Shown: positions 595-39,551, counted from the stretch's first letter. The stretch is DNA of 64,000 bases from a virus (IMGVR_UViG_3300050821_020196:6527-70526); one strand, 5' to 3'. A program made the numbers and translations. The notes: generated by a model from the sequence alone, not told the origin.

Positions 595-810
595 ATGAAA
601 GAAGAAAAGGAAAAGGAATCCCCGGAAACCGCCGTTCCGAAAGGGGTAAGCGCTTACATGCGCAAGCTCGCCCGCAAGTCGCACGCCGCCCGTAAAGGCA
701 CCCCGAAGGCGATCGCTCACGCGAAGGACATGGCTTTAAAGAGCGCGGCGGCCCGTAAGAAGCGGGCGGAGGAACGCCGCTTAGCCGGGACGACTCCGGA
801 GGCGGCGTAA
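595..810 (+). CDS. Small basic hypothetical protein
   Basis: ORF; ATG 595 preferred over TTG 526; K/R/A-rich. Confidence 0.6.
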   Translation: MKEEKEKESPETAVPKGVSAYMRKLARKSHAARKGTPKAIAHAKDMALKSAAARKKRAEERRLAGTTPEAA

Positions 811-822
811 TTAAATGCCGGA

Positions 823-1035
823 ATGTATACTTGGGCGAATGCCATGGTCCAATTCGACTACGACCCGGATAGCGGCCTCGTAACTCTTTGCGAGGTTATT
901 AACGGGGAGCGGATTCGAACCATCGAGAGCCGTTACATCGAGCGCAATCTAAGCAAGAAGCAATTCTTCGATAAACTTATAGAGGCGGTAAAATGCACCC
1001 CGGAAGAAGTGACATTGAAGGATTTAAAGGATTAG
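823..1035 (+). CDS. Hypothetical phage protein
   Basis: ORF preceded by GTAATT at 807. Confidence 0.6.
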   Translation: MYTWANAMVQFDYDPDSGLVTLCEVINGERIRTIESRYIERNLSKKQFFDKLIEAVKCTPEEVTLKDLKD

Positions 1036-1264
1036 AGAACCTCGATCCCGGAGAGACCTATTCTTTTACCGGCGAACAGCTGGCCATGTTCATTCGCGGC
1101 TCCGTCGGGATCGCTAATGAGCTTTATACTAAGATGGGGACCGGCAACGACGAGGCGGTTTACCGGGAAACGATCATGATGCAAATGGAGGGCCTCCTCG
1201 TCGAGCGGGAACTCGTCCGGCGCGGCATCGTAAAGAACCCTAAGCACCAACTCTATCCGCTCCC

Positions 1265-2032
1265 TTGAACGCCCAACTTTTTATCGTTACCTACGCGAAG
1301 GATCTCGATTGGCTAGCCGTCTCCTTGCGTTCGGTAGCGAAATATTGGAAGTCGGAGTACCCGCCGCTTATCGTGGCCAATATTGATAGCTGGGGGAAGC
1401 TCCCGCGCATCGTCCGCGAACTAAACGCCCGGGTGCATTGGGTAGACTTATGGTCGGACGGACGCCGGGACCAGGTCTACGTTAAGATGCACGCCGACGA
1501 CTATATCGCCCCGGAGGCGGATTCGGTTCTTTACCTCGATAGCGACTGCCTTTTTTCGCGTCCGGTCGATCCTAGCCTACTCGTAGATCCGTCGGGGCGG
1601 CCCTACGTACGGATGCGATCCTACGCCTCCGCTTTAGACGAGGGGATAAACGGTCGGCGGCTAAACGAGATCGAGAACTGGTCTTATCGCGGCTATCGAG
1701 ACGTTATCCGGGAAATTTTAACCGGGGAGTCTCCGGTCTACGAGTACATGCAAGCTATGCCCTACTTGTACTACAAAGACACGGTTCGGCGCACCCGGGA
1801 AGCGATCGAGAAGCGGTGCGGGAAGAGGTTAAAAGAAGTCATGTTCGATTACCATTCCTCCCTCTTTTCCGAGTTTAATCTCTTCGGGGCTTACGCCGCC
1901 CGTTACGAGCCGGAGCGTTAACGCTTCCTTTTGCCGGAGGAATACGGGCCGAAGTGCGTGCGCGAATTCCATAGCTGGACGCAAAGCCCGGAGGATAAAA
2001 AGAGCGAGATCGAGGAGATCCTATGCCGATAG
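1265..2032 (+). pseudogene. DUF6492-like glycosyltransferase-related protein with internal stop
   Basis: YLDSDCLF (DxD) and FSEFNLFGAY motifs; TAA at 1919-1921, but the frame continues (RFLLPEEY...REFHSW...) to TAG 2032. Confidence 0.55.
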
Positions 2033-2445
2033 TCTATAAGCCTTATTCGTGGTATAAGGAAGGGAAGTACATGGGAGAGGTTTACCTCTCGGAGATGAAG
2101 TTGTTTATTCCTAAGCCGCCTTCTCCGGAAACCGATCCTTTGCGCGATCCTCTACCGCTTCTCGCGAAATTAAGTATGAGTAATAAGCTCTACGGCAAGG
2201 TTTACTTGGATAACCAGTTCCTCGGCATCGCGGAGGTGAGCCTGGAAATGGTAACCCTAGCCGAGATCGCTTTTCCGTTAATGGGGGGGAAGAATGCGGA
2301 TCTTCTTTTTCGCGGGAGTACCGGCGGCAACCCAGCCACGGGGATGGTAGATGTACGGATGCCGGTTTCGCTTTCCGTACTTCGCGATTTAATCCCGGTC
2401 CGGCACGAGCAAGTGCATACGGATAACCCGAACTACGACGAATAA
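2023..2445 (+). CDS. Hypothetical phage protein
   Basis: 140-aa ORF with GAGGAG upstream. Confidence 0.6.
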   Translation: MPIVYKPYSWYKEGKYMGEVYLSEMKLFIPKPPSPETDPLRDPLPLLAKLSMSNKLYGKVYLDNQFLGIAEVSLEMVTLAEIAFPLMGGKNADLLFRGSTGGNPATGMVDVRMPVSLSVLRDLIPVRHEQVHTDNPNYDE

Positions 2446-2657
2446 TTTATCTTTGACGAATTGACCGGATGGATAAGATCGACGGATTAGCCGCTAGCCT
2501 CGAAGAGGAATTAGCCAAGCTCGAAGCGAAGCTAGTGCGCACTTCCTTAGAGCAGAATTATATCTGGGCGATCCGGAGCCTTCTCCGGCAATATTACGCC
2601 GAGATTAAGGGCAAGTAATCTTACCGCCCGCATAGCTTAGCGGTAGTTCTCGGGCGT

Positions 2658-3047
2658 ATGAGAGAGAAGGTTCGCGACATTACCGCAAGTCGGCACGGCG
2701 GGAACGCGGAATCGGCTTTAGCCTTCCGCGATCTCCGCCCGCACCTTGCCGAGCAAACCGCCCGAGTAGCTTCGATTATCCTTCAACATCCGCACGGTCT
2801 AACCGCGCAGGAAATCGAGAGGATCTCCGGCATTCCGTATAATTGTGTCTCCGCCCGTTGCGCGGAGTTAAAGGCGGAGGGTTTAGTCCTTCGCAAGAAA
2901 TTGGGTACCAACCTCGAAGGAAAGCCGTTTTTCGAGCGGCGGAAAACCCGTTCCGGATCGCTAGCCGTCGTCCTAATCTGGAATCCGACGATTAGCCCGT
3001 CGACGATCGGCTGGGTGAAGGAACTCTTCGAAGCTCCCGCCTCCTAA
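2658..3047 (+). CDS. Winged helix-turn-helix protein
   Basis: GLTAQEIERISGIPYNCVSARCAELKAEGLV; GTAGTT at 2643. Confidence 0.7.
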   Translation: MREKVRDITASRHGGNAESALAFRDLRPHLAEQTARVASIILQHPHGLTAQEIERISGIPYNCVSARCAELKAEGLVLRKKLGTNLEGKPFFERRKTRSGSLAVVLIWNPTISPSTIGWVKELFEAPAS

Positions 3048-3075
3048 CCGCTAAAAACCGCTAACCCTGAAAACG

Positions 3076-3127
3076 AAAAACGGCTCTCCTAATCCTCACC
3101 TAAGGTAGGGAGCCGTTTTTCGGTATA
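3076..3127. terminator. Hairpin with A/T flanks (copy 2)
   Basis: aaaaacggctctcct...agggagccgttttt. Confidence 0.55.
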
Positions 3128-3144
3128 TGCCCTGACTTTATTTT

Positions 3145-3489
3145 ATGAGAGAGTTTAACCTATCCGATCTTATAGAACGAGAACGAGCGCGTAGTTTTAA
3201 GCGTATGCCTCGGGCCCGCGTTCAACATCAGGTGAAGTATAGTAAAACGATGGAGCTAGGCAACGGTCAACGCTTCGAAATGTGCGCCAATTCCAAGAAC
3301 GGTTATTTCACTACCATTTCCCGCAACGTTTTAAAGGATGCGCCGGTCGTGGTCGGTCCGACCGATCTAAACCGGGAGCAATGGCTAGAGCTAGCCGAGG
3401 TTTGTACGAAAATCGCGAGTCTAGTAAAAAGCCGGAATATTAAGGAATTTTTTAATCCGAACTCCCCGCTCGATAGCGAGTTGTATTGA
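3145..3489 (+). CDS. Hypothetical phage protein
   Basis: 114-aa ORF. Confidence 0.55.
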   Translation: MREFNLSDLIERERARSFKRMPRARVQHQVKYSKTMELGNGQRFEMCANSKNGYFTTISRNVLKDAPVVVGPTDLNREQWLELAEVCTKIASLVKSRNIKEFFNPNSPLDSELY

Positions 3490-3504
3490 ACGTAATTAAC
3501 CGCG

Positions 3505-3723
3505 ATGAACATGGTAGTTAAAGCGGTCATGGCGGTTAAAACCTTAATTATCGTGGCTTCCGCCGCCGCTTTAATCCTGGAAGCCTTTATCGCGAAGGAG
3601 ACTTTTAAAATTGAAAAAGATACCGATAACCTCGTGAAGATCGAAGGCCAGATCCGGGATCTCCTTTCTATGGCGGATAAATATGGCAAACCGTCCGCCA
3701 CCCCTACCCCGGAGACGAAATAA
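3505..3723 (+). CDS. Small membrane-anchored protein
   Basis: N-terminal hydrophobic helix; GTAATT at 3492. Confidence 0.6.
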   Translation: MNMVVKAVMAVKTLIIVASAAALILEAFIAKETFKIEKDTDNLVKIEGQIRDLLSMADKYGKPSATPTPETK

Positions 3724-3726
3724 TTT

Positions 3727-4101
3727 ATGCCCGATGAGGAAAAGAAGAGCACCGGTAAATCGACCGACTGGACGAAAATCGTCGGAGCGGTCGCCGGGGG
3801 AGTGCTTCTCGCTTTGCAAGGAGCCAATCTTTCCGAGGTTTCTCACGGCAACTCCAATGGCGAGAAGCGTATGGAGACGCTCCAGCAATTGTTAGTAATT
3901 TCGAAGAACATTGACGCTTCGCTTAAAAATCAGACCCAAATGCTAGAGCATGACGAGCAAAGCGCCTCTAATCAAAAAGTTATCCTGGACACGATAAATA
4001 AAGCGATTAGCGAACGGCGTACCCTCCTCCAGCAAAGCATTGACGAGTTAAGGAAAGAAAACCATCCGACGCCTTCCTCTACTCCTTCCCCGACGCCTTA
4101 A
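3727..4101 (+). CDS. Membrane-anchored coiled-coil protein (possible lysis accessory)
   Basis: TM segment IVGAVAGGVLLAL followed by heptad repeats. Confidence 0.55.
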   Translation: MPDEEKKSTGKSTDWTKIVGAVAGGVLLALQGANLSEVSHGNSNGEKRMETLQQLLVISKNIDASLKNQTQMLEHDEQSASNQKVILDTINKAISERRTLLQQSIDELRKENHPTPSSTPSPTP

Positions 4102-4103
4102 AT

Positions 4104-4328
4104 GTGTTTATGGAATTCTGGAAACTATGTCTAGCCTGGGGTTGTTTAACCATGTTTTTCGGAGTTCCGATCGTCCTTTTTACCTTGCATATTTGGAACC
4201 TACAAACGCCCGCCGCTTTTATCCAACATATTCAAGAATTTAAATATATTGGGGAATATCTTCGTACAATAACGGCGATTATCATTTCGCTCGCCGGACT
4301 ACATACCGTCGAATTTTTTAAAAAGTGA
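4104..4328 (+). CDS. Two-TM small protein, holin candidate
   Basis: Two hydrophobic segments, basic C-terminus; function inferred. Confidence 0.45.
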   Translation: MFMEFWKLCLAWGCLTMFFGVPIVLFTLHIWNLQTPAAFIQHIQEFKYIGEYLRTITAIIISLAGLHTVEFFKK

Positions 4329-4606
4329 ACTGGCAACGCTATAAGATCTGTCTTTCGAACGGGTTAAAAGCGTCTTCCGCGCTAATCGCCGCCGTCGATA
4401 TACCGGTCGATATGCAGGTTCTCGGCGATATGGTTTTATATCATTTTCCGGCTTACCGCATCCGTTTCTTTAAAAACTAAGCGAGCCGGGTATTTACGCG
4501 ATAGTACCCCGGTTCGCTCGGATGCCATCGCAAGTCTCTAAGCGGATCGGGGGAAGTGTTAAGATTTCATTTTCACCGCACAAGTTACCGATGCCAATAA
4601 TAATGG

Positions 4607-4987
4607 TTACCGTAGTCCCTCCAATGCGGCAAACGCATCGTGAATAGATAAGCGGCTGTAGTTGAGGAGTTCGAGATCGTTACTCGTCGGACTCGTCTTG
4701 CGAGCATACGGACGCCACTTCATATTGGCCGTACTACCGTTAACGAGATCGTTAAACTTCATGCAAACGCTAGCGTAGTTGCCGCATTTGATATTACATA
4801 TATTCTCTCCGTCGAGCGGCGCGGACGGGTAGCCGTAATTAGGCTCTCCGCAAAGGATGTCCGCTTTTATTATGACGTAAGCGCCCCAGTTGGGCATCAT
4901 GCTCGGGCGCGCGTATAAGTGCCAGCGATTGCGATTCCGAATCAGCTGGTAAGTTCGGTCTTCGATAATTAAATGTGTGGGAAGCAT
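4607..4987 (-). CDS. Hypothetical moron-like protein
   Basis: 126-aa ORF opposite to its neighbours, upstream of the packaging module. Confidence 0.45.
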   Translation of the reverse strand: MLPTHLIIEDRTYQLIRNRNRWHLYARPSMMPNWGAYVIIKADILCGEPNYGYPSAPLDGENICNIKCGNYASVCMKFNDLVNGSTANMKWRPYARKTSPTSNDLELLNYSRLSIHDAFAALEGLR

Positions 4988-5110
4988 TTGAGAAAATTAC
5001 CGCCCGCTTTAACAAGTTGAAGACATTTTACGAAAAATTCCATCTAATAAGCCAATAAGGTCACTAATGACCTAGGGATTGAGGTACTCCGTCGTCAGCC
5101 AATAAGTCAT

Positions 5111-5155
5111 AGGTTCTTTCAAAAAGCGCGATCGTTCAGCGGACGCTGGCGACGT
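5111..5155 (+). other. Candidate cos site (cosQ-like AGGTTCT, cosN-like CGCTGGCGACGT)
   Basis: Resembles lambda GGGTCCT...GGGCGGCGACCT; lies just upstream of terS. Confidence 0.45.
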
Positions 5156-5308
5156 GAATTTCGATTTAGGGTGAATTAATTGTAATGTACGTCTCCAGCC
5201 AAAAATGTGTATTTTTACATTTAATGGTTGATTTGACCCGAAAAACGACGTGAACGTCGTTTTTAAGCGAGCTAGAATGTGCCCGATTTTGCGGGTATAT
5301 ATTTGAGT

Positions 5309-5521
5309 ATGGCTTCTCAAAAAGAGATAAAGGACTTCTTGGATCGGAAGAGATCTCTCCGTATCCAGAGACAAGCGGAGCTAGGCGCATGGCTAGAGCA
5401 GGTAGCCGTTATGCAAGAAGCGCTAGGCCGCAAGCTAGAGGAGAAGGAACTATCCGAGGCTCTAATCCAGTACAATAAAGTAAACCCTCCGGTAATTTAC
5501 GATATTATCCCTAACGAATGA
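5309..5521 (+). CDS. Hypothetical protein
   Basis: ORF whose stop overlaps the terS start (ATGA). Confidence 0.55.
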   Translation: MASQKEIKDFLDRKRSLRIQRQAELGAWLEQVAVMQEALGRKLEEKELSEALIQYNKVNPPVIYDIIPNE

Positions 5522-8014: not shown

Positions 8015-8027
8015 CGTACTTTTCGGC

Positions 8028-8216: not shown

Positions 8217-8244
8217 TTTTCCCCGGCCCGGCGTATTTACCGGC

Positions 8245-8478: not shown

Positions 8479-8481
8479 GCT

Positions 8482-10320
8482 ATGGCTAAACCGCCGGTAA
8501 AGCGCATCTCCGTTCCCCGCCCCCGCAACGCGGTTAATGGTCGTTTCGAGGCGAAGAACGCCTACATACCCGATTTAACTACATCTCCCCCGGGCATGGG
8601 TTTCCGGCGGGGCACCGGTTATGGGGTAGGGGCGGCCAGTTGGGAAACCAATGCTACGAAAGCCTGGTCGAGCCGCCCGGGATCTCCGGATTCGGACATC
8701 GTCCTTAATATCGATCTTATTCGTTCCCGGAGCCGCGAATTATTCATGAATTCGCCGTTGGCGGCGGCGGTAGTTAATACTACGAGGGTCTATACCGTTT
8801 CGACCGGGATAAAACCGCTTCCGAAGATCAACTACAAGCGGTTAAAGATTACGGAGAAGGAGGCGGAGGAGTTTAACGAGGATTGGTCGGAGGAGTTTAA
8901 CCTCTGGGCGAACTCCACGGCTTGCGACTGGTACCGGCGCATGAATTTCTACCAGCTGCAGGATTTAGCCATTGCTTCCATGCTTTTAAACGGTGATGCG
9001 CCCACGCTTTTGCCCTACCTCCAGCGCCCGGGCGATCTCTACGCGCTAAAGATCCGCATGATCGAGGCCGACCGCCTTTGCAACCCACTTTATTGGAATT
9101 ACGACCGCAACATTCTCGGGGGAGTAGAACTCGGGGATACTGGGGAGGTTATTAGCTACCACGTACGGCAAATCCACCCCCACCAGAATTTCTATCCGGC
9201 GGCGGTAGTGGAGAAAATGTTCGATTGGGTAGAGATCGACGCCTACGGCAAGCTTACCGGGCGGCCCAACCTTCTTCTTATCTCCGAATACGAACGATGC
9301 GAGCAGCGGCGGGGGGTGCCGATCCTGGCGAAGATTATCGAAATCCTGGCCGATTTTACTCGTTTCGTTAAGGCGGAGGTAAGCGCCTCGGAGATGACGG
9401 CCCGCTTTATCGCCACCGTGGAAAGCGAATTCCCGGACGAAAATTTCCTCGAAAAACTGACGAAAGAGGAGCGGGACTCCCTCTACCGGGTAGGCCGCTA
9501 CAACGTCATCGTCGACGAGAGCAATATCGTTAATTTCCTCCGCCCGGGCAATAAGCTGAACCTTCTAAAAAGCGAGCGGCCCTCCGGCACCTTCGATCCT
9601 TTCGTTACCGCTATTTCGAAGCTGGTCGGAGCGGCGTGCGGAGTGCCTTACGAGATCCTTTTAAGCTGTTTCTCTTCTTCCTATTCCGCTTCCCGGGCCG
9701 CGTTCAATTTGTTTGAGAAACGGATTAAGGTATTACAGAACATTATCATTTCCCAATTTTGCCAGCCGGTCTACGAGCAGCTCATGGACGAGGCGGTGGA
9801 GGAGGGAATTATTAAGGCTCCCGGCTATTTCGAGGACCCGCGCATCCGGGCGGCTTATACCCGGTGCAAGTGGATCGCCACTCCCATGGGGTCGATCGAC
9901 CCAACTAAAGATATTCAAGCTTCTAAGGATCTTATTATTATCGGGGCCTCCGATTGCGAGGCGGAGGCGGCTAAGCTAACCGGGACGAATTATAAGCACA
10001 ACGTCGCTCAGCTAGGTAAGGAAGTTAAGGAATTCCATGCCGAGGGGCTTAACCACCCCATGATCGAGACCCCGATTACCCGTACGCAAAGGATTATGGA
10101 CGAGTCGGTCGACGATACCGGCGCTCCTACTCCCGGGAAGCCGAAAGCCCCGCCTACCGCTCCGTCGGGGCCTTCTAAATCGCCTCCTCCCGCTCCGACC
10201 GCTCCTTCCCCGCCCCCGAGCCCGACTTCTTCGAAGCGTTACGTAACCTATACCCTCGATTACGACCACGAGCCCGAGCCCGGGGAGGTTCTCCGCTATT
10301 TAGAGTCGACCCGTACTTAA
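8482..10320 (+). CDS. Portal protein, lambda family
   Basis: RSRSREL, IEADRL, QRRGVP, SSYSASRAA, IDPTKD motifs; Pro-rich C-terminal tail. Confidence 0.95.
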   Translation: MAKPPVKRISVPRPRNAVNGRFEAKNAYIPDLTTSPPGMGFRRGTGYGVGAASWETNATKAWSSRPGSPDSDIVLNIDLIRSRSRELFMNSPLAAAVVNTTRVYTVSTGIKPLPKINYKRLKITEKEAEEFNEDWSEEFNLWANSTACDWYRRMNFYQLQDLAIASMLLNGDAPTLLPYLQRPGDLYALKIRMIEADRLCNPLYWNYDRNILGGVELGDTGEVISYHVRQIHPHQNFYPAAVVEKMFDWVEIDAYGKLTGRPNLLLISEYERCEQRRGVPILAKIIEILADFTRFVKAEVSASEMTARFIATVESEFPDENFLEKLTKEERDSLYRVGRYNVIVDESNIVNFLRPGNKLNLLKSERPSGTFDPFVTAISKLVGAACGVPYEILLSCFSSSYSASRAAFNLFEKRIKVLQNIIISQFCQPVYEQLMDEAVEEGIIKAPGYFEDPRIRAAYTRCKWIATPMGSIDPTKDIQASKDLIIIGASDCEAEAAKLTGTNYKHNVAQLGKEVKEFHAEGLNHPMIETPITRTQRIMDESVDDTGAPTPGKPKAPPTAPSGPSKSPPPAPTAPSPPPSPTSSKRYVTYTLDYDHEPEPGEVLRYLESTRT

Positions 10321-10329: not shown

Positions 10330-11859
10330 ATGCCGGTTCCTAAGCCACAAAAAGGGGAGAAGAAAGACGATTTCATGGCCCGTTGTATGCACGAAGTCTC
10401 GCAAAACCCGGACCGGGAAAACGACCAGAATGTGGCTATTTGCCTCGATACTTGGCGGAAGAAAGATACCCAGGATGCCGTTATGAAAAAAGTCTTCGCG
10501 TTTAACGACCCCGAAAAGAAGGGGCTCCGCTGGGAACTCTCCCTTACCTCGGCAAAGGGGAAGAAGGAGGATATGGAGGACGAGGATAAGGAAGACGACT
10601 TCGACGACGAGGAGGACGACGACGAGGATACCTACGACGCGGTAAAGAACGATGACTCGGAGGGCGGGGACGACGAGGGCGGCGACGATAGCGAGATGCA
10701 CGCCTCGGATAAGAGCGATTCCGCGAAGGATAAGAAGGAGGCTGGGGAACTCGGCAACGACGATAGCGCTAACGGCGGCGCGGACCCTCTCGGCGAAAAT
10801 GTTGTCGCTAATCTCTCCATATATGGTGATATCGGCGAGAATTCCGATTCGGAAGCTTCGATTTCCGCCGCCGCATTCCGTTCCGCGTTGGCCGAGGCGG
10901 GGAATATTTCGAAGTTGAATATCCATATTAACTCGGCGGGCGGCAACATGTATGACGGAATTAGCATCTCCAACGCTATTTCCGAGCATCCGGCTCCTTC
11001 CGTAGCTTACGTCGACGGCCTAGCCGCCAGCGCGGCGACCATCGTCGCTCTCGGGGCGGATAAGACGGTTATGCGGGATAACTCGCATTACATGATCCAT
11101 AATTCCTGGGCCGCCGCCGTCGGAGATGCGGATTTAATGACGAAGGCGGCTAACCACTTAAAGATAGCCGACGAGACCATCTCCTCCATGTACGCCAGGA
11201 AGACCGGCCTGGATAAAGAGGTTATCTTGAAAATGATGTCCAACGAGACCTGGATGACGGCCCGGCAAGCGAAAGCGAAGGGTTTCGCCGACTCGGTAAA
11301 GGGCACCGTCGGCAAGGCGGCGAGAGCGAGCGCGAACAACCAATTTATCTTTAACTCCGTCGCCCTCGACCTGTCGCACTTTAAGAATATCCCGGCTAAA
11401 CTTACCCGGATGCGGGTTAAAAAGAGCCCCCCCAATAAAGTTTCTACCCCCGACGTAATTATCTCGGAATTTACTATGACCTCATCCGCCGACATTAAAG
11501 CTAAGGCTCCCGAAGCGTACAACGAGATCTATGCTCTAGGCGCGGAGGAAGGAATTAAGCGCGAACGGGAACGCATCGCCGAGATCGAGGCTTTCGACGC
11601 TCCGGAGTGCAAGGAAATCGTGGCCAAGGCCAAAGCGGACGGCTCTCTCGCTTCCGCCATTGCCGTGGAGTGCTTTAAGGCGGTTAACGCTCGCAAGCCG
11701 CAAGCGGTCTCCCCGGCAAATGCCCGCAAGCTGGACGCTAAGGATGTCAATTCCCTCGGGGCGGACATGAGCGACGTCGATAAGAAGGAAATGAGCGCTC
11801 TCGAAAAGCGGGCGGCAGTAGCCGACCTCATCGCGGGTAAGAACGGCAACCGGAAATAA
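10330..11859 (+). CDS. ClpP-type head maturation protease fused to scaffold
   Basis: INSAGG, GLAASAAT, MIHN, ETWMTA..A...GFAD; C-terminal ERERIAEI scaffold region. Confidence 0.9.
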   Translation: MPVPKPQKGEKKDDFMARCMHEVSQNPDRENDQNVAICLDTWRKKDTQDAVMKKVFAFNDPEKKGLRWELSLTSAKGKKEDMEDEDKEDDFDDEEDDDEDTYDAVKNDDSEGGDDEGGDDSEMHASDKSDSAKDKKEAGELGNDDSANGGADPLGENVVANLSIYGDIGENSDSEASISAAAFRSALAEAGNISKLNIHINSAGGNMYDGISISNAISEHPAPSVAYVDGLAASAATIVALGADKTVMRDNSHYMIHNSWAAAVGDADLMTKAANHLKIADETISSMYARKTGLDKEVILKMMSNETWMTARQAKAKGFADSVKGTVGKAARASANNQFIFNSVALDLSHFKNIPAKLTRMRVKKSPPNKVSTPDVIISEFTMTSSADIKAKAPEAYNEIYALGAEEGIKRERERIAEIEAFDAPECKEIVAKAKADGSLASAIAVECFKAVNARKPQAVSPANARKLDAKDVNSLGADMSDVDKKEMSALEKRAAVADLIAGKNGNRK

Positions 11860-13480: not shown

Positions 13481-13501
13481 GCCCCGGGGTAGTTATCCGG
13501 C

Positions 13502-13855: not shown

Positions 13856-13860
13856 ACCCT

Positions 13861-14508
13861 ATGCCGATAATTGTCGATGCCCGCGATTTCGCCCGTTGCC
13901 GGAGTAATCTCTTCGAGATCCCGAAGAAGGTGCCCTCCATCCTTTCCCGCTCGATTAACTATGCCCTCCGGCGGACGAAGACTCTTATTCTATCGGAGAA
14001 GGGGCCGGTACGGAGCGTCTATAACGTTAGCCGGGCCTCTCTTAACAAGAAGGGGATTATTAAGACGAAATGGGCGGAGCCGAGCGATCCCCCCTACGGG
14101 GCGTTAATGATCGCCGGGAAACGGTTGCCGCTCTATGCCTTTCTCGGGAGGAAGATCGTCGGGCAACGCACCGGCTGGGGGCAACAAGTACAGGTAGAGG
14201 TCTTAAAAGGGCAACGGAAGACTCTCCCCCACGCCTTTATCGCCACCATGGAGAGCGGGCATACCGGGATTTGGGAGCGGACCGGAGAGTTCGCGATTAG
14301 TAAGCGCGGGCGTTACGTCGGCAAGCGGCGGGAGAAGATCCGGGAGCTTTTTACGATTAACGTCGCCCAGATGGTCGGGGGAGCCCGGGCAACGGAAACG
14401 GTGCAAGCCTACGCCCGGGCCCAGTACGAAAAGGAGGTCGTCCGGCTCTCCAACGTCGCCTTAAAGGCCTTCGCGGATAAGCAGAATAAGAAGCCCTCCG
14501 GCTTTTAG
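13861..14508 (+). CDS. Minor tail protein Z-like
   Basis: HAFIATMESGHTGIWER motif. Confidence 0.75.
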   Translation: MPIIVDARDFARCRSNLFEIPKKVPSILSRSINYALRRTKTLILSEKGPVRSVYNVSRASLNKKGIIKTKWAEPSDPPYGALMIAGKRLPLYAFLGRKIVGQRTGWGQQVQVEVLKGQRKTLPHAFIATMESGHTGIWERTGEFAISKRGRYVGKRREKIRELFTINVAQMVGGARATETVQAYARAQYEKEVVRLSNVALKAFADKQNKKPSGF

Positions 14509-14521
14509 TAATTAGAGGGGA

Positions 14522-15205: not shown

Positions 15206-15266
15206 CACATTAGCGTATTTTCCGAGGGCAAAATAAAGTTTCCCTCTCGCTCGTAATTATCCGGCG

Positions 15267-17169: not shown

Positions 17170-17188
17170 CCCTTAGTACTTATCGATT

Positions 17189-20540: not shown

Positions 20541-20618
20541 TCTTATAATAGAACGGCCTTTGCTTAGATACTCCGATTCGCACGTACGGTCTTTTGCCGA
20601 AGCGTATTTAGACGGGAG

Positions 20619-23228: not shown

Positions 23229-23248
23229 CGACCGTTAAATACTTCTAG

Positions 23249-24241: not shown

Positions 24242-24268
24242 AAAGAGGGGAATTAGTATTTTAGGGGG

Positions 24269-26977: not shown

Positions 26978-27001
26978 AATGCCTTCCTCGTATTTCTTAG
27001 C

Positions 27002-28393: not shown

Positions 28394-28408
28394 CGTACTT
28401 ATTCCGCA

Positions 28409-29687: not shown

Positions 29688-30272
29688 ATGGCCACCTTCC
29701 TCCCTAACGTTAGCTTTACCGATCTCCTTAGCCCGGCCTTAGCCGGAGATCCGGTCGCCTATGCCATGGCGCAAGCGCTCGACGCGGAGATGCAGGACAT
29801 TTCCCGGGCCATCCGTACCGGGCTAACCCTTTGCAATCTGGAAGAACAACCGGATCTTGTCCTCGATTACCTAGCCGTCCAGTTCGCCGTCTGGGGGTAC
29901 TCGACGACCTTCCCCCTCGACCAGAAAGTGAGCATGATCCGCAATTCCGTTTATTGGAATTCCTTTAAAGGCACGGCGGGCTTAATGAAGTCGGCGATTA
30001 CCCTTATCTTTGCCAATGTCACGATAATCCCTTGGTTCCAGTACGATCTAACGCAACCTTACCATTTTCGCATCGCCTGTGCGACTCCGCCCACTTCCGA
30101 CCAGATCGAGGTCATGAACATTTACGTTAACCAGCTAAAGAGCGTCCGGGATTACTTCGAGGGCTTTTTCGAAACCTTTTTCTCGACCAGCTCCCTCTTC
30201 GTGGGGATCTCCGAGTACACGATTATTGGAAGTTACATCGGTCCCGTGCCCCGGGGCTTCCCGTCCATTTAG
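29688..30272 (+). CDS. Tail protein I-like baseplate wedge
   Basis: VLDYLAVQF, KGTAG, PWFQY..PYHF, KSVR. Confidence 0.85.
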   Translation: MATFLPNVSFTDLLSPALAGDPVAYAMAQALDAEMQDISRAIRTGLTLCNLEEQPDLVLDYLAVQFAVWGYSTTFPLDQKVSMIRNSVYWNSFKGTAGLMKSAITLIFANVTIIPWFQYDLTQPYHFRIACATPPTSDQIEVMNIYVNQLKSVRDYFEGFFETFFSTSSLFVGISEYTIIGSYIGPVPRGFPSI

Positions 30273-30288
30273 TACTTAGAAAATAACG

Positions 30289-32130
30289 ATGCCTGTCTAT
30301 ACCCAGACCACGACGAACAACGGGTTAACCGCTCTCGCCGCCACTTTTACCTCGGCGTTGCTCAATATTACCCGGGTAGCGGTCGGTAGTGGCCTCCAAA
30401 ATAATCCAGCGACGGCGAACGCGCTGGCCATGGAACAGATCCACTCCGTTATCGTGGCCGGAAAGACGGTAACCACGACCGGGAATATCGAGATCTCGGT
30501 TATTATTTCCAACGCCTCGGTAACCTCCGGTTTCAACATAACCGAGATCGGCATTTTCGGTACCTCCGGCACCGGGCCGGAGCAAATGCTTATCTACGTT
30601 ACCGATTCCTCCCCGGTACCGCTTCCGCCCTTCTCCGCCGGAACGACCAACATCTACGACTACTTCGGGATCGGCATCGCCAATACGGATAACGTGACGG
30701 TGACCGTGGCGACGAATGCCTACGCCCTCCAGTCCCAATTCGTTACCCATCTCGGCGATCCGGCGGCGCACCCGCAAGCCTTTTTAAATCCCTTCAATTT
30801 AAGCACGACTTCTAAGCAAGGGATGATCCGGTCGCTTAACGGATCGATTAATTATTACCTCGCCGGGGACGGAAGCTGGCAGCCCATCGTCCCGCTAATA
30901 ACCTCCTTTACCAATTTATTCGTCGACCCCTCTTACAATAATATTGCTCCCAATTTTAGCTCCCTACCTAACGCCATGAATTATCTCCGGGGGTTTTCTA
31001 TCGCCTCCGGGGTCGGCGTTAATATTAACATGAACGCGGCGGTCTATAGTACCCCCGCTTCCATTAACCTCGACCACATTAACGGGACCCAGATTCAAAT
31101 CCTGGGCCCTCTCAATCCGGACGGCTCCTTCTCCGGCATCGGGGCGATTAGTGGAAGTCAGTATAATTGGAGCGTTCAGTTAACCGGATGTACGAATGCG
31201 GCGACGACGAAAGTGGGCAATTATATAACCTGCTGGAACGCCAATTCGAGTACCAGCGCGGGTCTCGCCCTAACCGGTTGCTTCCGGGTTATCGCCGTAA
31301 GCGGGTCGAACATTACCGTCTATATCCCTTCGAAGTTTACCTCCTGGCCCGCCATGGGGAGCGTCTCCGGGAGTTTCTCCGTGCAAAGCGTCGTCTTAAG
31401 CATGGGGAAAAACCAGGAAGTTGTTATCGGCACTCACGGCCTCGGCCTAATGCGCTCGATCGCCATCGTAGCCGGAGTCCTTCCTAGTCAATTCCTCGGC
31501 ATGGGCGGCCTTACCTGTAGCGGCCCTTTCTACTTTAACCGGGTAGGGGTAGCCGGGTTTATTCCCGGGCCCGGGTTCGTAGCTAACGGCGAATACATCG
31601 GTTTTAACTTCGGGCCGGGAGCGGCGGGAACGATGTTCTTTTGCGCCTCCTCCGGTAACATGCACGGGATAACTTCCTCCGGTGCGCAGGTAAATACGAT
31701 CTGGTGCGCCTTCTCGCATAATACCGTCTACGGCATGTGGATGCAGAGCGGGAACATTGCCCCTTGTTACGATTACGTTAGCCCGGGGGGCAACGCTTAT
31801 ACCTTTTCCGTGGATAACGGGAATATCGGGATTATCGTCAATGCCAATTCCGTCTTTACCCTCCAGGCCGGTTGGGAATCGAGCGTAGAGGTCTACGGCC
31901 TAGCTATCTCTTTCTATAACGGAAGCTGGGGGGTCTGGGTAGGGGAGAAGTCGCTTACGAATGCCTCCTCCGGCACCTTAGATTACATCTATTCCGGGAA
32001 TAACGTTAACGGGGATCTCGCCGTCTCCGGGATTAGCGTTGCCGATGCGGCTATGGCCGGGTCGCACATCCTTAACCAGCCGGTGGGCACCTTTAACGCT
32101 AACGGAGTAATTAACGCCGCCATGGTTTAA
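30289..32130 (+). CDS. Tail fibre protein (gpH-like N-terminus, beta-helix-like C-terminus)
   Basis: TNNG..ITRVAVGSG..GFNITEIGIF, H..DPAAH. Confidence 0.85.
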   Translation: MPVYTQTTTNNGLTALAATFTSALLNITRVAVGSGLQNNPATANALAMEQIHSVIVAGKTVTTTGNIEISVIISNASVTSGFNITEIGIFGTSGTGPEQMLIYVTDSSPVPLPPFSAGTTNIYDYFGIGIANTDNVTVTVATNAYALQSQFVTHLGDPAAHPQAFLNPFNLSTTSKQGMIRSLNGSINYYLAGDGSWQPIVPLITSFTNLFVDPSYNNIAPNFSSLPNAMNYLRGFSIASGVGVNINMNAAVYSTPASINLDHINGTQIQILGPLNPDGSFSGIGAISGSQYNWSVQLTGCTNAATTKVGNYITCWNANSSTSAGLALTGCFRVIAVSGSNITVYIPSKFTSWPAMGSVSGSFSVQSVVLSMGKNQEVVIGTHGLGLMRSIAIVAGVLPSQFLGMGGLTCSGPFYFNRVGVAGFIPGPGFVANGEYIGFNFGPGAAGTMFFCASSGNMHGITSSGAQVNTIWCAFSHNTVYGMWMQSGNIAPCYDYVSPGGNAYTFSVDNGNIGIIVNANSVFTLQAGWESSVEVYGLAISFYNGSWGVWVGEKSLTNASSGTLDYIYSGNNVNGDLAVSGISVADAAMAGSHILNQPVGTFNANGVINAAMV

Positions 32131-32716: not shown

Positions 32717-33240
32717 GTAATTGTAGCGCCAGTGCTAACGCGGCGGCGAACGCCAACCCGAACCTGCCCTACCGGGTGAACGATTTCTCGACTTACCCGA
32801 TTGCCTTCTTTGCCTCCATTTTCCAAGGGGACGACTTCCTTCTCCCGATTAGTTTTTATTCGACGAACGGGGGCGGGGAGGATCTTACCGGGCAAACCTT
32901 CGCCCTGAGCGTGGACTGGAAATTCTACCAGCGTGATTGGGGGTGGAGAGAGTACATGAATAAGCCTTTCCTCCTCTATAGCCAGGTGCTAGTGGGAGAT
33001 CCGTCGGGCAATCTTTTCTTTAATATCCCCGGTTACGGGGGAAGCGGCTTGCCCTATCTCCCGGGCTGGTGTGGGTGCTTCGGGACCCCTTGCGCGACGC
33101 TTCCGATCGGTACCTTAGCCCTCGAAGTAAAGCGCTGGTTCCCGGTTAGCGGGGTGCGGGTTACTACGCTTAAGGGAAACCTCGTCGTTAAGCGCTCGGT
33201 AAATTATATGGCGACTCCGGTCTATCCGGCTCCGGCGTAA
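32713..33240 (+). CDS. Hypothetical virion accessory protein (BppU-like adaptor?)
   Basis: IFQGDDF..DLTG..LKGNLVV. Confidence 0.55.
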   Translation: MSNCSASANAAANANPNLPYRVNDFSTYPIAFFASIFQGDDFLLPISFYSTNGGGEDLTGQTFALSVDWKFYQRDWGWREYMNKPFLLYSQVLVGDPSGNLFFNIPGYGGSGLPYLPGWCGCFGTPCATLPIGTLALEVKRWFPVSGVRVTTLKGNLVVKRSVNYMATPVYPAPA

Positions 33241-33250
33241 TTAACGAGCG

Positions 33251-36200: not shown

Positions 36201-38363
36201 CTAATCGGCACCTGCACGAATACCATTATCTCGAATTGTGTTCTTCACAATTTCGCCATGGGATTCGCCGGGGATAACAATAATGGCTTCCTCATTATTG
36301 GCAACGATCTCCTAACCAATACCAACGCGGGTGGTCAGTGCGATATTATTCACCTCGGTAGCGCGCTTAACATCACCATTGAGCGAAATAAGATCGTCCA
36401 GCGGGCTCCGGGCAACCCGACGACGAGGCATAACGATTGCATCCAGACGTATACGACCGGCACGGCCAATCCCAATAACTGGATTGTCCGCTATAACTGG
36501 ATAGAAAATCAACAAACGACGGCCAATAGCTCCGGGGATTGTTCCTGGCATATTATGCAGGATATGCAGGACGCGGGAAGTCTCCCGGCCTTAAAGATCT
36601 ACGGCAACGTCTATGTCGGGAGCGGCAACGCCTCTAACAATGGTATCCTTTGCAACCGCAACGGGGCCTCCGGGGGAACTTTTTATCTCTACGGGAATAC
36701 CTTCGCGATTACCCCGAACGACTCCCCGGTTAATACCGTCCGCTTCTTAAACGATGCCGGGCCGGGCACTCTTTACGCCCGGAATAATGCCGGGCAGAGG
36801 GCCGCCCAACGGGGAACGGATCTCGAATGGGACCTTACCCCCGGGGGAAGCGGGTTCGATTATAACTTCTGGTACAACTGGTTCGGATCCAATACCGAGC
36901 CCGACTCCCTTTTCTCCGGGCCGCACGGTTTCTTTTCCGGAAGCCCGCCGACCACTTCTCCTTTTAACAATTTTAGCGGAGGCGACTTTAGCCCGGCCAC
37001 CGGGAGCCCGCTTATCGGAGCGGGCGACATCACCATCGGCTCCGAGTTCCAATACGGTCTCCAGCCGGGGACGACTTTCCCGAATCCGACGGTTATCCAG
37101 CGGGCAGCTTCCGCTTACGACGTCGGCGCGTTCGTCGCCACTCCGGCCCTTACCGGAGGCGGAGGCACCGGAGGAGGAGGTACTGGCGCTCCAGGCGAAA
37201 ACGCTTTTACGGTTACCGCAAGCGACTCGACCGGCACTTTTACCGTGCCTCAGGTTGGCTCCTCGACGACGGTTAACGTAACCAACGCCGACTTTATAGT
37301 TCCTGGCCAGATTGTTTACATCGCCGGAGCGGGCGGACCGGGAACCGCTGGAGCGCTTCAAGTACAGGCCGTCGTGGGCAAAACGCTTACTTTATATAAC
37401 CCCATTCCCCCTCCTTCCGGGTCTTCCCCGGGAAGCGGCGGGATAGTTTATTCCGGGGTTAGCTCGGTAAGCGTCGTCGGCAATACCATCTCCCTCGTTA
37501 ACGATCTCGCTAACCCGGGCAATTTAAAAGTCTACGGGACCAATCCCTCCGGAGTACTCGGTTGGAGTGCCATCTCCGGGCTACCGGTAAATTATGCCTC
37601 TCTCGTCGGTACGCAACCGGCTCCCCCGCCGCACGCCGCTTCGCACGAAAGCGGAGGGGTCGACGTTATCCCGCTCGATACCCTCGGCTCGCCGACCGAC
37701 ATTACCACGCTCAATGCTTCGACGAGCGCTCACGGTCTTCTCCGCAAACTAGACGGAACGGCGACCCATTATTTAGACGGCACCGGAGCCTGGAGCACCC
37801 CCGCCGGAGGTGCGACGGGAGCTACGGGCCCGACTGGGCCGACGGGAAAGAATTGTTATACAACGACCAGTGGGCCCTTTACCGTCCCCAGCTCGGGGAC
37901 GGTAACGGTTTCCGTCGTCGATGCCGGATGGGCCGTTCCCGGGGAGATGGCCTATTTTAGTGGTGCGGGCGGATCGGGTTTAGCCGGGGCGCTAGAGATC
38001 GTTTCTATCGCCGGAAATACCCTAACCCTCGGATTGCCGACGCCGCCGAGCTACGCGCCTCCGGCGGTCGACCTTACCGTTTTTATCGAGAGCCCGACGA
38101 ATAAGACTTACGTCCTCGACCTCGGCCTTCCCGCTCCTTGTACGATTACTTCGATTTTAATTAAGACCGTCTCCGGTACCTGCACGGCGGCTTTAAACCG
38201 CAACGGCTCGGCCATTACCGGAGCGAGCGCTCTTTCCGTTAGTAGCACGCTAACCTCGGTAACTCTAGGCCAAGCTTGCTCCGCCGGGGATACGATAACC
38301 CTAGTTATAAGCGCGAACTCTAGCTCCGTCGATCTAGCCGCTTCCGTCCACATGCAACCGTAG
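33251..38363 (+). CDS. Giant collagen-repeat fibre with beta-helix domain, frameshift at C8 run 33334-33341
   Basis: GPT/GAT triplets, His-rich modules, central beta-helix (HNDCIQ); removing one C fuses the 33251 start to the 1628-aa ORF. Confidence 0.85.
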
Positions 38364-38375
38364 AACGAATGTCGA

Positions 38376-38906
38376 ATGTCGAATAGCCTGATCATGGTTG
38401 GCATGCGCCCGCGCTACTCGCTTTTCCTCCCCTCCGAGGTTCCGGCGGGTAATGGCCCGCTTGCCGGATCGCTCAATGCCGGGATCGCTTTCTTCGTTTC
38501 CGTCGCGTGCAACCTCCTCGCCATGCGGTTTTATAAGCGGTCCGACGATACCGATACTAGCCACACGGTAAACCTTTGGGACGTGTCCGGTCGGACTAGT
38601 TTAGCTTCGCAAGCCTCCTCCGGAGAACCGGCCTCCGGCTGGGTGGAAGTTCCGTTAACCACTCCCGTTCCGTTGACGGCGAATAAGGCCTACTACGTTA
38701 CCTTCTTCATGCCGGGCGGCTTCTATAGCTATACGGACGGTTACTTCACCTCGGCGGTTACCCGGGGGCCGATTACCGGGTATGCGGACGGGACGGTGCC
38801 GGGAGGGATCGTAAATAATACTGGCATTTATCATTTCGGTTCCGTTCCGACCTTCCCGGATTCCGGATATGCAGCCAACTATTGGGCGGACGTGGTGGTC
38901 GATTAA
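38376..38906 (+). CDS. DUF4082-like protein
   Basis: RFYK, SGWVEVPL.TPV, NYWADVV. Confidence 0.8.
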   Translation: MSNSLIMVGMRPRYSLFLPSEVPAGNGPLAGSLNAGIAFFVSVACNLLAMRFYKRSDDTDTSHTVNLWDVSGRTSLASQASSGEPASGWVEVPLTTPVPLTANKAYYVTFFMPGGFYSYTDGYFTSAVTRGPITGYADGTVPGGIVNNTGIYHFGSVPTFPDSGYAANYWADVVVD

Positions 38907-38942
38907 ATAAGAAAAATTTTCCTTTTCCGTAATTAAAGGTAT

Positions 38943-39551
38943 ATGGCAAACATTCCCGGCGTAGCAATTCCCGGTTCGGTCGTGGTAAGCGGAAGCGGCG
39001 TTTCGCCTGGAGGTGCTCAAGGTATCCAAGGACCTGCCGGGGCAAGCGGAGGCGGAAGCGGTTCCGGAGGGACGAAAACTTGGTCGAAATTTAATGCCAA
39101 TGATGGCCAACCTCCGGCGACCAATTATGCCGTTTGGGGAACTCGTAATTCTACATCTTTTCTAGCTTTTAACGACACGACCGCCTGGGCGACGGTCTTT
39201 ATCGGCATCGTGCCCGAATCCGCCGTCGTTAGTAGCGGCGTCCTCATCCGGATTTTTTGGATATCAGCATCGAGTTCTTCCGGCGCGGTGCAATGGGGAG
39301 CGCAAATCGATTCCATGACCGCCGGGAGCAATCCGACGAGCGATAGTTTCGATACGGCGGCGACGGTCTTTACTACGACGTCGGGGAGCAACGGCGTTAT
39401 TACGATCTCCTCGATTACCTTAACCTCGATCGACGGGATCGGGATCGGCGACGGTTACCGGCTTAAAATTTATCGCGACGCGTCGAACTCGAACGACAGC
39501 ATGGCTGGCGACGCCCAGGTTCTCGCGGTAGAGATCCGAAGCGCCAACTAA
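38943..39551 (+). CDS. Hypothetical virion protein (beta-sandwich)
   Basis: ORF with short collagen-like linker; GTAATT at 38929. Confidence 0.6.
   Translation: MANIPGVAIPGSVVVSGSGVSPGGAQGIQGPAGASGGGSGSGGTKTWSKFNANDGQPPATNYAVWGTRNSTSFLAFNDTTAWATVFIGIVPESAVVSSGVLIRIFWISASSSSGAVQWGAQIDSMTAGSNPTSDSFDTAATVFTTTSGSNGVITISSITLTSIDGIGIGDGYRLKIYRDASNSNDSMAGDAQVLAVEIRSAN

Follow-up and report, generated by a model that had tools for sequence, protein, structure and literature searches.

A short box, GTANTTA, stands just in front of the ATG of about 20 genes of the myovirus-like prophage in the 64,000-nucleotide stretch of DNA analysed here (IMGVR_UViG_3300050821_020196:6527-70526, hereafter the window). 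Since the same phage also encodes a putative, divergent sigma factor of its own (ORF 23249-24241), the box most likely serves the phage as a private promoter and gives messages with little or no leader. In the form that we consider probable, GTANTTA marks a set of -10-only promoters that are read by the phage sigma factor, and transcripts start at the ATG or 1 to 4 nt before it.

Occurrence of the box

The initial annotation had paired 18 copies of GTANTT with a following ATG, and all 18 pairs were found where it had placed them (Table 1). Those starts were not hand-picked, because a mechanical ORF list gives every one of these ATGs as the first start codon of an ORF at least 60 amino acids long. 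Two copies were added, one on the minus strand (position 5000) and one left of the window (L161:1388), which brings to 20 the genes with GTANTT 12 to 17 nt upstream of their first ATG. The promoter proposal had been put forward for virion genes; the motif is not restricted to these and also precedes small genes left of the terminase (ATGs 823, 2658, 3505 and, on the minus strand, 4987) and a glycosyltransferase/TPR gene (L161:1402).

Table 1. GTANTT boxes and the candidate cognate sigma factor; distances run from the G of the box to the ATG.
Feature	Position	Strand	Distance (nt)	ATG, gene and remarks
GTAATTA	807..813	+	16	823 (70-aa ORF); box and stop of ORF 526-810 overlap
GTAGTTC	2643..2649	+	15	2658 (129 aa, weak MarR/wHTH)
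GTAGTTT, extra site	3191..3197	+	14	3205, in frame in ORF 3145-3489 and its probable true start
GTAATTA	3492..3498	+	13	3505
GTAGTTA, extra site	3514..3520	+	15	3529, in frame; tandem with the 3492 copy
GTAATTT, newly added	4994..5000	-	13	4987 (126 aa)
GTAATTT	5492..5498	+	26	5518 (terS); predicted leader ~13 nt
GTACTTT	8016..8022	+	12	8028
GTATTTA	8233..8239	+	12	8245 (77 aa)
GTACTTA	10313..10319	+	17	10330 (protease/scaffold); AGGAG in between
GTAATTA	11455..11461	+	21	11476, in frame within protease/scaffold gene; possible nested scaffold start
GTAGTTA	13489..13495	+	13	13502; box immediately 3' of G+C hairpin
GTAATTA	14508..14514	+	14	14522
GTAATTA	15253..15259	+	14	15267; top PWM score, 17.3
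GTACTTA	17176..17182	+	13	17189; gene next after sheath
GTATTTA	20604..20610	+	15	20619 (587 aa, tail-fibre-like)
GTATTTA	23236..23242	-	14	23228 (GH26-like); in 20-bp divergent gap
Candidate cognate factor, divergent sigma, 330 aa	23249..24241	+		predicted region-2 fold, residues ~34-131; no motif before own ATG
GTATTTT	24256..24262	+	13	24269
GTATTTC	26990..26996	+	12	27002
GTACTTA	28395..28401	+	14	28409
GTACTTA	30272..30278	+	17	30289 (613-aa fibre)
GTAATTA	32107..32113	+	36	32143; box in last codons of fibre gene
GTAATTA	33237..33243	+	14	33251
GTAATTA	38929..38935	+	14	38943
Box, newly added, left of window	L161:1388		14	L161:1402 (glycosyltransferase/TPR gene)

The expected positional enrichment over shuffled and host controls was borne out. 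In a scan of gapped hexamers from -24 to -4 of 53 greedy ORFs, GTANTT came first, with 18 occurrences against 0.67 expected (p 3e-21). The window holds 31 copies of GTANTTA, against 19.45 +/- 5.13 in shuffled sequences, a number reached in 1 of 100 shuffles, and 29 of the 31 lie within the prophage. The 47.9-kb prophage part has 980 ATG triplets on its two strands, and 27 of them have GTANTT at -17 to -12; 20 of these are the first ATG of an ORF of at least 55 amino acids and 2 are in frame near such starts (3205 and 3529). Of the other five, 1 begins an ORF of 57 amino acids and 4 begin ORFs of 1 to 9 codons. Canonical sigma-70-type promoters are not enriched between 1 and 40 kb (7 versus 11.7 and 6 versus 8.6 expected).

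The box is also conserved. One close relative (L081; portal 58% identical) keeps it before three orthologous genes: that of the protease (45% identity; box at 16 nt, Shine-Dalgarno [SD] sequence not kept), that of the 77-aa gene (51%; 13 nt) and terS (35%; 14 nt, versus 26 nt in the window). The spacer sequence flanking the box differs between these orthologs, and a divergent gap of 45 bp in the relative contains two copies placed back to back. This bears on the idea that composition alone produces the box, through stop codons and A+T-rich intergenic spacers. It had been noted that a few copies overlap the upstream stop codon, which is true for 5 of the 20 (807, 10313, 14508, 30272 and 33237), and genes without a box frequently show TAA...TTTTT-ATG. 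However, the phase of the box to the stop varies, C or T at its fourth place gives no stop codon, and the spacers of host and satellite genes lack it. The hexamer ranking and the conservation in the relative bring this extremely improbable explanation close to refuted.

Restriction to the phage

The box is restricted to the phage. The initial annotation had not seen it before host genes, and of the 16 GTANTT copies that the contig has in its host flank and satellite, none lies 10 to 19 nt before a start. Among 80 loci from Verrucomicrobiota genomes the motif is found at -19 to -10 of 3 of 540 ORFs, and among 80 loci of distant portal relatives at 13 of 1683. The density of GTANTTA in the prophage is about nine times that in host-type DNA (31 copies in 48 kb versus 43 in 587 kb); of the 43, none is 10 to 19 nt before a start and 5 are within 200 nt upstream.

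These counts also bear on a reading in which the box is a promoter for the host holoenzyme, with its primary or an alternative sigma factor and perhaps a phage activator, and ORF 23249-24241 has another role. The ORF is linked to the motif by co-residence only and is a candidate reader; the form TANNNT fits 4 of the 20 boxes, and the Thermus phage precedents involve host RNA polymerase with phage modifiers. Yet the density in the prophage and the lack of host-type copies near starts count against a host reader. The adjoining satellite, expected to use host promoters, has no box near any start, and a strong host-read box before virion genes would break lysogenic silence. We therefore regard a host reader as quite unlikely.

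Spacing and sequence context

The G of the box lies 12, 13, 14, 15, 16 and 17 nt before the ATG at three, five, seven, two, one and two of the 20 sites, which leaves gaps of 5, 6, 7, 8, 9 and 10 bp, respectively, between TANTTA and ATG (6 to 7 bp at 12 of 20). The extended consensus is c-GTAnTTA-w-c-g-G. Its fourth base is unread (A at seven sites, T at six, C at five, G at two). Three good copies are farther away, at 21, 26 and 36 nt, and would therefore give short leaders. The base after TANTT is A at 14, T at 4 and C at 2 of the 20 sites; the box is thus not TANNNT, an observation that counts against the promoter reading, as does the gap of 5 to 10 nt, which is equally expected of a ribosome-binding element.

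Most motif genes were said to lack an SD sequence, and there is indeed no SD core between box and ATG at 15 of the 20 sites; GGAG, GAGG or AGGA is present at three (10313, 14508 and 20604) and a partial core at two. A leaderless transcript would not contain these three cores, which speaks against strict leaderlessness at those sites. TAANTAC is absent throughout the 16S genes of four of four host relatives, whose 3' end is canonical (GGATCACCTCCTTT). The box cannot pair with host-type 16S rRNA and so lacks Shine-Dalgarno complementarity.

Could the box nevertheless act in the mRNA, as a translation-initiation element of another kind? A ribosomal or phage protein would then bind GUAnUUA near the exit channel of the ribosome, with the AUG 5 to 10 nt downstream, in transcripts of long operons. 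The gap equals SD spacing, the majority of box genes have no SD core, each gene requires some signal for initiation, and the genes on either side of the box are tightly packed. In addition, the host lineage looks SD-scarce: an SD core is present in 22 of 187 ORFs of host-type loci, and a published list of SD-scarce genomes includes Akkermansia and a second member of the Verrucomicrobia (PMC10783764). Some non-SD initiation signal is for that reason to be expected anyway. Against such an element stand the missing complementarity to 16S rRNA and the rarity of the box in host-type genes (the 3 of 540 above), because of which its use by the host ribosome is not known. Good copies occur at 21 to 36 nt, the distance at terS shifts between orthologs, a scan of 40 proteins gave no phage ribosomal or RNA-binding protein, and the phage encodes a sigma candidate. 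We consider a translation element unlikely.

It is very unlikely that the box is an RNA processing site, where an endonuclease of host or phage origin would cleave the long late transcripts into monocistronic RNAs starting near the AUG. The box is A/U-rich and looks single-stranded, it often lies directly 3' of G+C hairpins (13489, 14508 and 30272), and the outcome, short leaders, would be the same. However, no nuclease candidate was found, the box in the 20-bp divergent gap (23229-23248) is left unexplained, as a promoter is needed there anyway, and no promoter set would be visible for the phage sigma factor.

The unread fourth base, the missing 16S complementarity, the variable distances and the copies in divergent gaps make the box look promoter-like rather than like a ribosome-binding site. 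The absence of a shared -35, reported in the initial annotation, was confirmed: over positions -45 to -2 relative to the box, no column or k-mer stays significant once corrected, and the best k-mer, AATAA, occurs at 5 of 24 sites (not significant over 1024 tests). Promoters of ECF sigma factors combine a short -10 with a conserved AAC-type -35 at constant spacing; AAC at -45 to -25 is not enriched here (9 of 24 versus 5.8 expected). The earlier proposal of a private promoter is thus supported in part, by the unread base, the lack of 16S pairing, the lack of a -35 and the leaderless-type spacing, but it needs amendment in that the genes are not virion genes only, three sites have SD cores and three good copies would give short leaders.

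The candidate sigma factor

The 330-aa product of ORF 23249-24241 matches no Pfam family even at E 10, neither Sigma70_r2 nor Mor, and the best Sigma70_r2 score among its 10 closest relatives is 19.4 bits, below the cut-off of 24. In its wider family, 20 of 44 members match Sigma70_r2 at E 0.01 or better (best E 7e-12), and the family profile has sigma factors as its top matches in the PDB (E 1.8e-5). In the AF2 model (pLDDT 86.3), residues 37-131 superpose on region 2 of E. coli sigmaE with its -10 strand (4lup_A; Z 11.1, rmsd 2.1 Å, 91/91 aligned) and the model also matches 2o7g_A (Z 10.7, rmsd 1.8 Å, 85/88); the best 50 structure matches listed are all sigma factors. Look-alikes in the Atlas are sigma clusters, which we take as a lead only. 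Judged by these models, the protein has a sigma region-2 fold.

A complex model of residues 25-140 with residues 200-360 of beta' from a host relative scored 0.83, against 0.01 for the best of three controls; among solved complexes, 58 of 80 attain this mark, as do 2 of 110 mismatched pairs. Contacts agree between the runs to at least 98%, with a partner pLDDT of at least 84. The model thus places sigma-2 on the beta' clamp helices, a result that shows likeness and may reflect memory of solved sigma-RNAP complexes, because this is a much-solved pair.

The C-terminal 190 residues are predicted to be folded without a clear fold match (best Z 5.5); region 4 of sigmaE (2h27_D) gives Z 5.1 (rmsd 3.4 Å, 67/69), tied with unrelated helical proteins. 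The Mor model (PF08765) is matched by 6 of the 44 family members (best E 7e-8), a likeness at the family level only. Mor and C of phage Mu are free-standing activators that bind upstream of the -35 of sigma-70 promoters. Here, in contrast, the likeness concerns a domain fused to a sigma-2 domain, and the -45 to -2 interval before the box shows no conserved Mor/C-type activator site. A C-terminal half that reads DNA would lead one to expect an upstream element, and none is seen. The suggestion that this ORF is the sigma factor is supported by the region-2 fold and by the absence of the motif before the ORF itself, whereas the size of the protein and of its C-terminal half does not fit a gp55-like architecture.

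Comparison with known systems

The strategy is already known from the Thermus phages phiYS40 and Lalka27a, and -10-only late promoters are known from T4 gp55. In the Thermus phages, about sixteen late promoters have a conserved -10-type box right before late genes; the box is TAGGGT, a variant of TANNNT, and a C is conserved at -25. Transcription starts 6 bp 3' of the box in Lalka27a, start sites were mapped for half of the promoters, most transcripts are leaderless, and a phage factor is thought to alter the specificity of host RNA polymerase (bioRxiv 10.64898/2026.04.20.719267). The prophage resembles them, as they are described there, in its dense putative promoters, the lack of terminators between collinear genes and the divergent promoter pairs in short gaps. 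It differs in its box, GTAnTT(A), in having no conserved upstream position and in its starts, which are predicted from sequence; moreover, the host is a verrucomicrobium and the phage is temperate and encodes a sigma candidate.

The T4 late promoter consensus is TATAAATA, and T4 late mRNAs carry leaders with an SD sequence. With gp33 and the sliding clamp gp45, gp55 uses a -10 box alone; it is described as the smallest member of the sigma family, with sigma-70 likeness only in domain 2 (PMC2988020). As in that account, the prophage has a putative -10 box alone, many copies before presumed late genes and a highly diverged phage sigma as the proposed reader; the 330-aa factor with its folded C-terminal half and the box consensus are different. 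For phiEco32, gp36 (with gp79) is described as a two-domain sigma factor whose sigma-2-like N-terminal domain contacts the clamp helices and recognises the -10 region and whose sigma-4-like C-terminal domain makes the sequence-specific -35 contacts that it needs (PMC12276001). The prophage protein is likewise modelled as a two-domain protein with a sigma-2-like N-terminal part, but the boxes share no -35 and the sigma-4 match is the weak one above. In Deinococcus-Thermus, a -10-type box 6 to 7 bp before the ORF replaces the ribosome-binding site and is read as a promoter of leaderless mRNA (PMC12340547). The most frequent gaps of the prophage are the same, within a wider range; the Deinococcus-Thermus box, unlike that of the prophage, is host-wide, TANNNT and read by the primary sigma factor, whereas ours is phage-only and has another consensus.

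Proposed mechanism

GTAnTTA would be a single recognition box, a non-canonical -10 element private to this prophage of what may be a soil Chthoniobacterales-type verrucomicrobium. The host RNA polymerase core with the phage sigma factor would melt the DNA at the box, and transcription would begin 5 to 8 bp 3' of it, at most of the 20 sites on the A of the ATG or 1 to 4 nt earlier, presumably late in infection. With such starts, many genes for packaging, head, tail and fibres, and accessory genes as well, would be expressed from mRNAs with no leader or almost none, in a host lineage that itself seems to make little use of Shine-Dalgarno pairing.

RESULTS

The initial annotation described 18 pairs of a GTANTT motif and a nearby ATG in the prophage, and all 18 are present as it gave them. 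In a mechanical ORF list, each of these ATGs is the earliest start codon of its ORF. A greedy ORF set added two further clean sites, one in the part of the record left of the window (L161:1388, ATG 1402) and one on the minus strand of the window (5000, ATG 4987). Two in-frame ATGs slightly inside longest ORFs of that set, 3205 and 3529, also lie behind a box, and their position suggests that they are real or alternative starts. Over the 20 sites, the distance from the box G to the ATG is 12 nt (three sites), 13 nt (five), 14 nt (seven), 15 nt (two), 16 nt (one), or 17 nt (two). In the prophage part, 27 of 980 ATG triplets have the motif at -17 to -12, and 20 of these 27 are first ATGs of long ORFs. 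In a scan that used no prior motif, GTANTT was the most enriched of all gapped hexamers upstream of 53 ORFs (18 seen versus 0.67 expected; p = 3e-21). The host flank and satellite hold 16 copies, all of them away from gene starts; the annotation had likewise noticed none before the host genes. The motif is at the start position in only 3 of 540 ORFs of a verrucomicrobial control (507 kb) and in 13 of 1,683 ORFs across 80 distantly related portal loci. The longer form GTANTTA occurs 31 times in 48 kb of prophage and 43 times in 587 kb of host-type DNA, making it about 9 times denser in the prophage. Several controls concur: the box-before-start pattern is not chance, and the original observation is confirmed.

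The core of the box consists, at all 20 sites, of an invariant G, T, and A, a free base (A in 7, T in 6, C in 5, and G in 2), and an invariant T and T. It is preceded by c (11 sites), a (5), or g (4) and followed by A in 14 of 20 sites and then by w, c, and g, with a G at +10 in 14 of 20. No position from -40 to -2 upstream of the box is conserved across the 20 aligned sites. A flexible-spacing k-mer search of 24 sites likewise left no -35-like word after correction, in agreement with the earlier view that there is no shared -35. That most motif genes lack a Shine-Dalgarno (SD) sequence was borne out as well, with no SD core at 15 of 20 sites; a core is present at 10313, 14508, and 20604 (3 of 20), the last one abutting the ATG. 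One reading of the G at +10 is that it is left over from an SD. This was rejected, as the G is only 1 to 2 nt from the ATG where the spacing is 12 nt. Its distance is constant from the box but varies from the ATG, and therefore it is part of the box rather than a weak SD. A hairpin with the box in its loop was also dropped, as the arms pair at few sites only.

Genes that lack a box either overlap the previous gene or have a TAA...TTTTT-ATG context. At 11872, 15583, 25667, 27926, and 32713, the upstream stop codon TAA is followed by a T run against the ATG (for example, taaatttttATG and taatttttttATG). Where SDs are scarce, as here, this context may act as a distinct, internal signal for initiation.

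Further copies of the box were found at other distances or before other starts (see the table). The ATG behind the copy at 11455 opens a 127-aa C-terminal product of the protease/scaffold gene, which by analogy looks like a nested scaffold gene with its own box; Nu3 within C of phage lambda is such a nested scaffold gene. To the left of the window, a box on the minus strand (L161 3156-3168; PWM 14.7) is 12 nt upstream of an in-frame GTG that lies 48 nt inside the longest ORF, 2509-3204(-), and this GTG may be a real, non-ATG start. The 146-aa ORF 33251-33691, which is behind a box, overlaps the fibre ORF 33477-38363 (1628 aa, collagen-like) by 215 nt in a different frame, and the first possible start of the fibre ORF is a GTG without a signal. 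The two may be joined by a frameshift, whether programmed or due to an assembly error, and the fibre start would then be 33251.

Features of the prophage, additional box copies, and flanking host genes (window coordinates)
Feature	Position	Strand	Context	Region or source
Extra box copy	5492		26 nt before terS	position-weight scan
Extra box copy	32107		36 nt before ATG 32143	position-weight scan
Extra box copy, perfect (cGTAATTA)	11455 (span 11455-11478)		21 nt before in-frame ATG 11476, inside protease/scaffold; from the position-weight scan	
terS	5518			prophage
terL	6053			prophage
portal	8482			prophage
protease/scaffold	10330			prophage
major head	12322			prophage
sheath	15583			prophage
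tape measure	17793			prophage
fibre genes	several			prophage
integrase	40234-41397	minus		prophage
Kdo transferase, AsmA, GlnE, malate dehydrogenase			right of prophage	host genes

The window covers positions 6527-70526 of a 70.5-kb virus record, and its prophage is myovirus-like, extending from window position 1 to about 41400 and taking in some or all of the 6.5 kb on the left. The malate dehydrogenase of the host flank is 69 to 84% identical to homologues from Verrucomicrobiota MAGs, mostly Chthoniobacterales. Apart from the prophage there is a 12-kb satellite, which carries a capsid gene, at about 50 to 62 kb. The satellite genes (49900-62000) have ordinary SDs upstream and no start near a box, and the satellite thus appears to show no sign of borrowing the private promoter of its neighbor. 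The sole minus-strand gene within the tail region (22392-23228), with a weak Pfam match to GH26-like glycoside hydrolases (E = 2.3e-4), has its own box and is 20 bp from the facing gene of the candidate sigma. Several soil metagenomes contain the same DNA as the window; for window positions 8000-17900, a look-up of matching runs gave none of RNA. The contigs from four soil DNA runs on window positions 1-20000 are short, identical, and of low depth with zero variant letters, and therefore they allow no statement on conservation within populations.

Searching IMG/VR with the terminase gave no relative of the phage, and terminase identity to cultured phages is at most 35%. A portal profile gave 80 loci, among which only L081, a 7.3-kb IMG/VR contig, is close (58% portal identity; the next is 40%); a metagenome scan added one distant locus, L162. 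In L081, the box is 16 nt before the start of the protease ortholog (45% identity), 13 nt before that of the 77-aa gene (51%), and 14 nt before that of terS (35%), compared to 26 nt for terS in the window. The remainder of all three spacers differs, the protease SD of the window is replaced by a T run, and terS-terL is inverted relative to the portal operon. The box is therefore conserved at gene starts while gene order, spacing, and flanks vary. The 45-bp divergent gap between terS and a 76-aa gene in L081 (3433-3477) contains two boxes back to back, flanking the inverted repeat GAGC-N8-GCTC, and may be a common control point of both operons.

The candidate sigma, encoded by ORF 23249-24241 (330 aa), has no Pfam or PHROG match with its own sequence. 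Its family comprises 99 cluster representatives. A Sigma70_r2 match is present in 20 of the 44 aligned members (best, 7e-12) and a Mor match in 6 (best, 7e-8). The best PDB matches of the family profile are sigma factors (E = 1.8e-5). In the AlphaFold model (mean pLDDT, 86.3), residues 37 to 131 superpose on region 2 of sigmaE with a bound -10 strand (Z = 11.1; rmsd, 2.1 A; 91/91), and sigma factors occupy all of the best 50 structural matches; Foldseek alone gave weak E-values (best, 0.019). A complex model with residues 200 to 360 of beta' from the host relative G001 scored 0.83, compared to 0.01 for the best control, with contact agreement of at least 98% and a partner pLDDT of at least 84. 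Of the solved complexes, 58 of 80 attain this mark, as do 2 of 110 mismatched pairs. This result shows likeness, and its source may be memory of the textbook interface. The C-terminal 190 residues form a confident fold (pLDDT, 88.1) with no clear fold match, region 4 of sigmaE appearing at Z = 5.1 amid unrelated helical proteins. The gene has no box upstream of its own ATG. It is 870 bp downstream, on the same strand, of a gene that the box would drive, so read-through could give positive feedback.

A second genome with the sigma was also sought. There was no tblastn match among 50,697 phage records, and IMG/VR scans with two family proteins (P0122 and P0123) gave no relative. A four-row profile scan of IMG/VR found one distant AT-rich phage (L165), which has ordinary SDs. 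Searches around the host relative G001 gave weak partial matches in 2 of 401 class genomes and 2 of 401 order genomes. Two of these matches (G614 and G417), taken with about 20 kb of flank on each side, showed no phage layout in their unannotated ORF lists and no enriched start-proximal motif; the other two places (L163 and L164) were scanned only. A word-index search returned only P0122 (61% identity; a 12.4-kb JGI contig) and one other protein.

DISCUSSION

The spacing of the box suits both a ribosome-binding site and the -10 box of a leaderless start, and therefore other features must decide. It may be that some unknown non-SD mechanism underlies the box, as the host lineage apparently makes little use of SDs (PMC10783764). 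In host-type loci (L001-L080 and L172-L175), an SD core precedes 22 of 187 long ATG-started ORFs, a rough figure based on longest-ORF starts, despite the canonical anti-SD in 16S rRNA. Several features speak for a promoter. In four host relatives, the 16S rRNA has the canonical 3' end GGATCACCTCCTTT, and none of the four contains the complement of the box at any position. The box is also absent from host-type genes, so it has no known use by the host ribosome. A free middle base in an invariant G-T-A/T-T frame favors reading of a melted strand by a protein over RNA pairing. Copies at 21 to 36 nt and the shift at terS from 26 to 14 nt could be tolerated by a promoter and not by a ribosome-binding site. 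The minus-strand box at 23242 is within a 20-bp gap between divergent start codons, which needs a promoter and has room for little else. Canonical sigma-70-type promoters and intrinsic terminators are not above shuffles across 40 kb, which also favors the promoter reading. RfaH ops-like and RNase E-like signals were considered and dropped, as the invariant bases do not match those of their consensus sequences. When 40 phage proteins were scanned against Pfam or PHROG, with both libraries used for 20 of the proteins, no further sigma turned up, nor did an RNA polymerase, a ribosomal protein, or a nuclease.

Taken as a promoter, the box has a gap between TAnTTA and ATG of 6 to 7 bp at 12 of 20 sites, the same gap as that given for Deinococcus -10 boxes adjoining ORFs (PMC12340547). 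It also agrees with the transcription start 6 bp downstream of the box reported for Thermus phage Lalka27a (bioRxiv 10.64898/2026.04.20.719267). The box here differs from TANNNT. We consider it probable that the box is a promoter read by the phage sigma. The sigma is linked to the motif by inference, from their co-presence in one genome and from the match between a -10-only box and a sigma that has no proven region 4. The interpretation of the initial annotation is partly supported: the promoter and a private sigma are likely, and the leaderless starts and late timing are features that we infer.

This kind of system is already known. In Thermus phages phiYS40 and Lalka27a there are many late promoters, each with one conserved -10-type box before late genes, together with leaderless transcripts and few terminators (bioRxiv 10.64898/2026.04.20.719267). 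T4 has a -10-only box read by gp55, a sigma with domain 2 only (PMC2988020), and phiEco32 has its own two-domain sigma (PMC12276001). What we describe is a variant that differs in its consensus, its verrucomicrobial SD-scarce host, its temperate lifestyle, and the architecture of its candidate sigma. A bolder and rather doubtful proposal is that ORF 23249-24241 is the founding member of a phage sigma class that has not been described before, with a sigma-2 domain and a Mor-like or otherwise new C-terminal module (99 cluster representatives, none in cultured phages), that reads a single 7-bp box without a -35. With such private sigmas, phages of SD-scarce PVC bacteria would set promoters directly on start codons, and in most of the virion regulon one short DNA signal would stand in for the promoter as well as the ribosome-binding site.

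If the reading of the box as a promoter for the phage sigma is right, a single 7-bp box together with a single phage protein would drive most late expression in a phage whose host phylum has hardly been studied, and the mRNAs would need no ribosome-binding site. The leaderless late-promoter strategy, mapped so far in Thermus phages, would then reach temperate phages of Verrucomicrobiota, and the box and its sigma would make a compact orthogonal promoter/sigma pair. Start codon and operon calls in such phages would also improve, for example, start 3205 over 3145, and the box would point to the nested scaffold start at 11476. The box can serve as a sequence-only marker for the late regulon in uncultured relatives.
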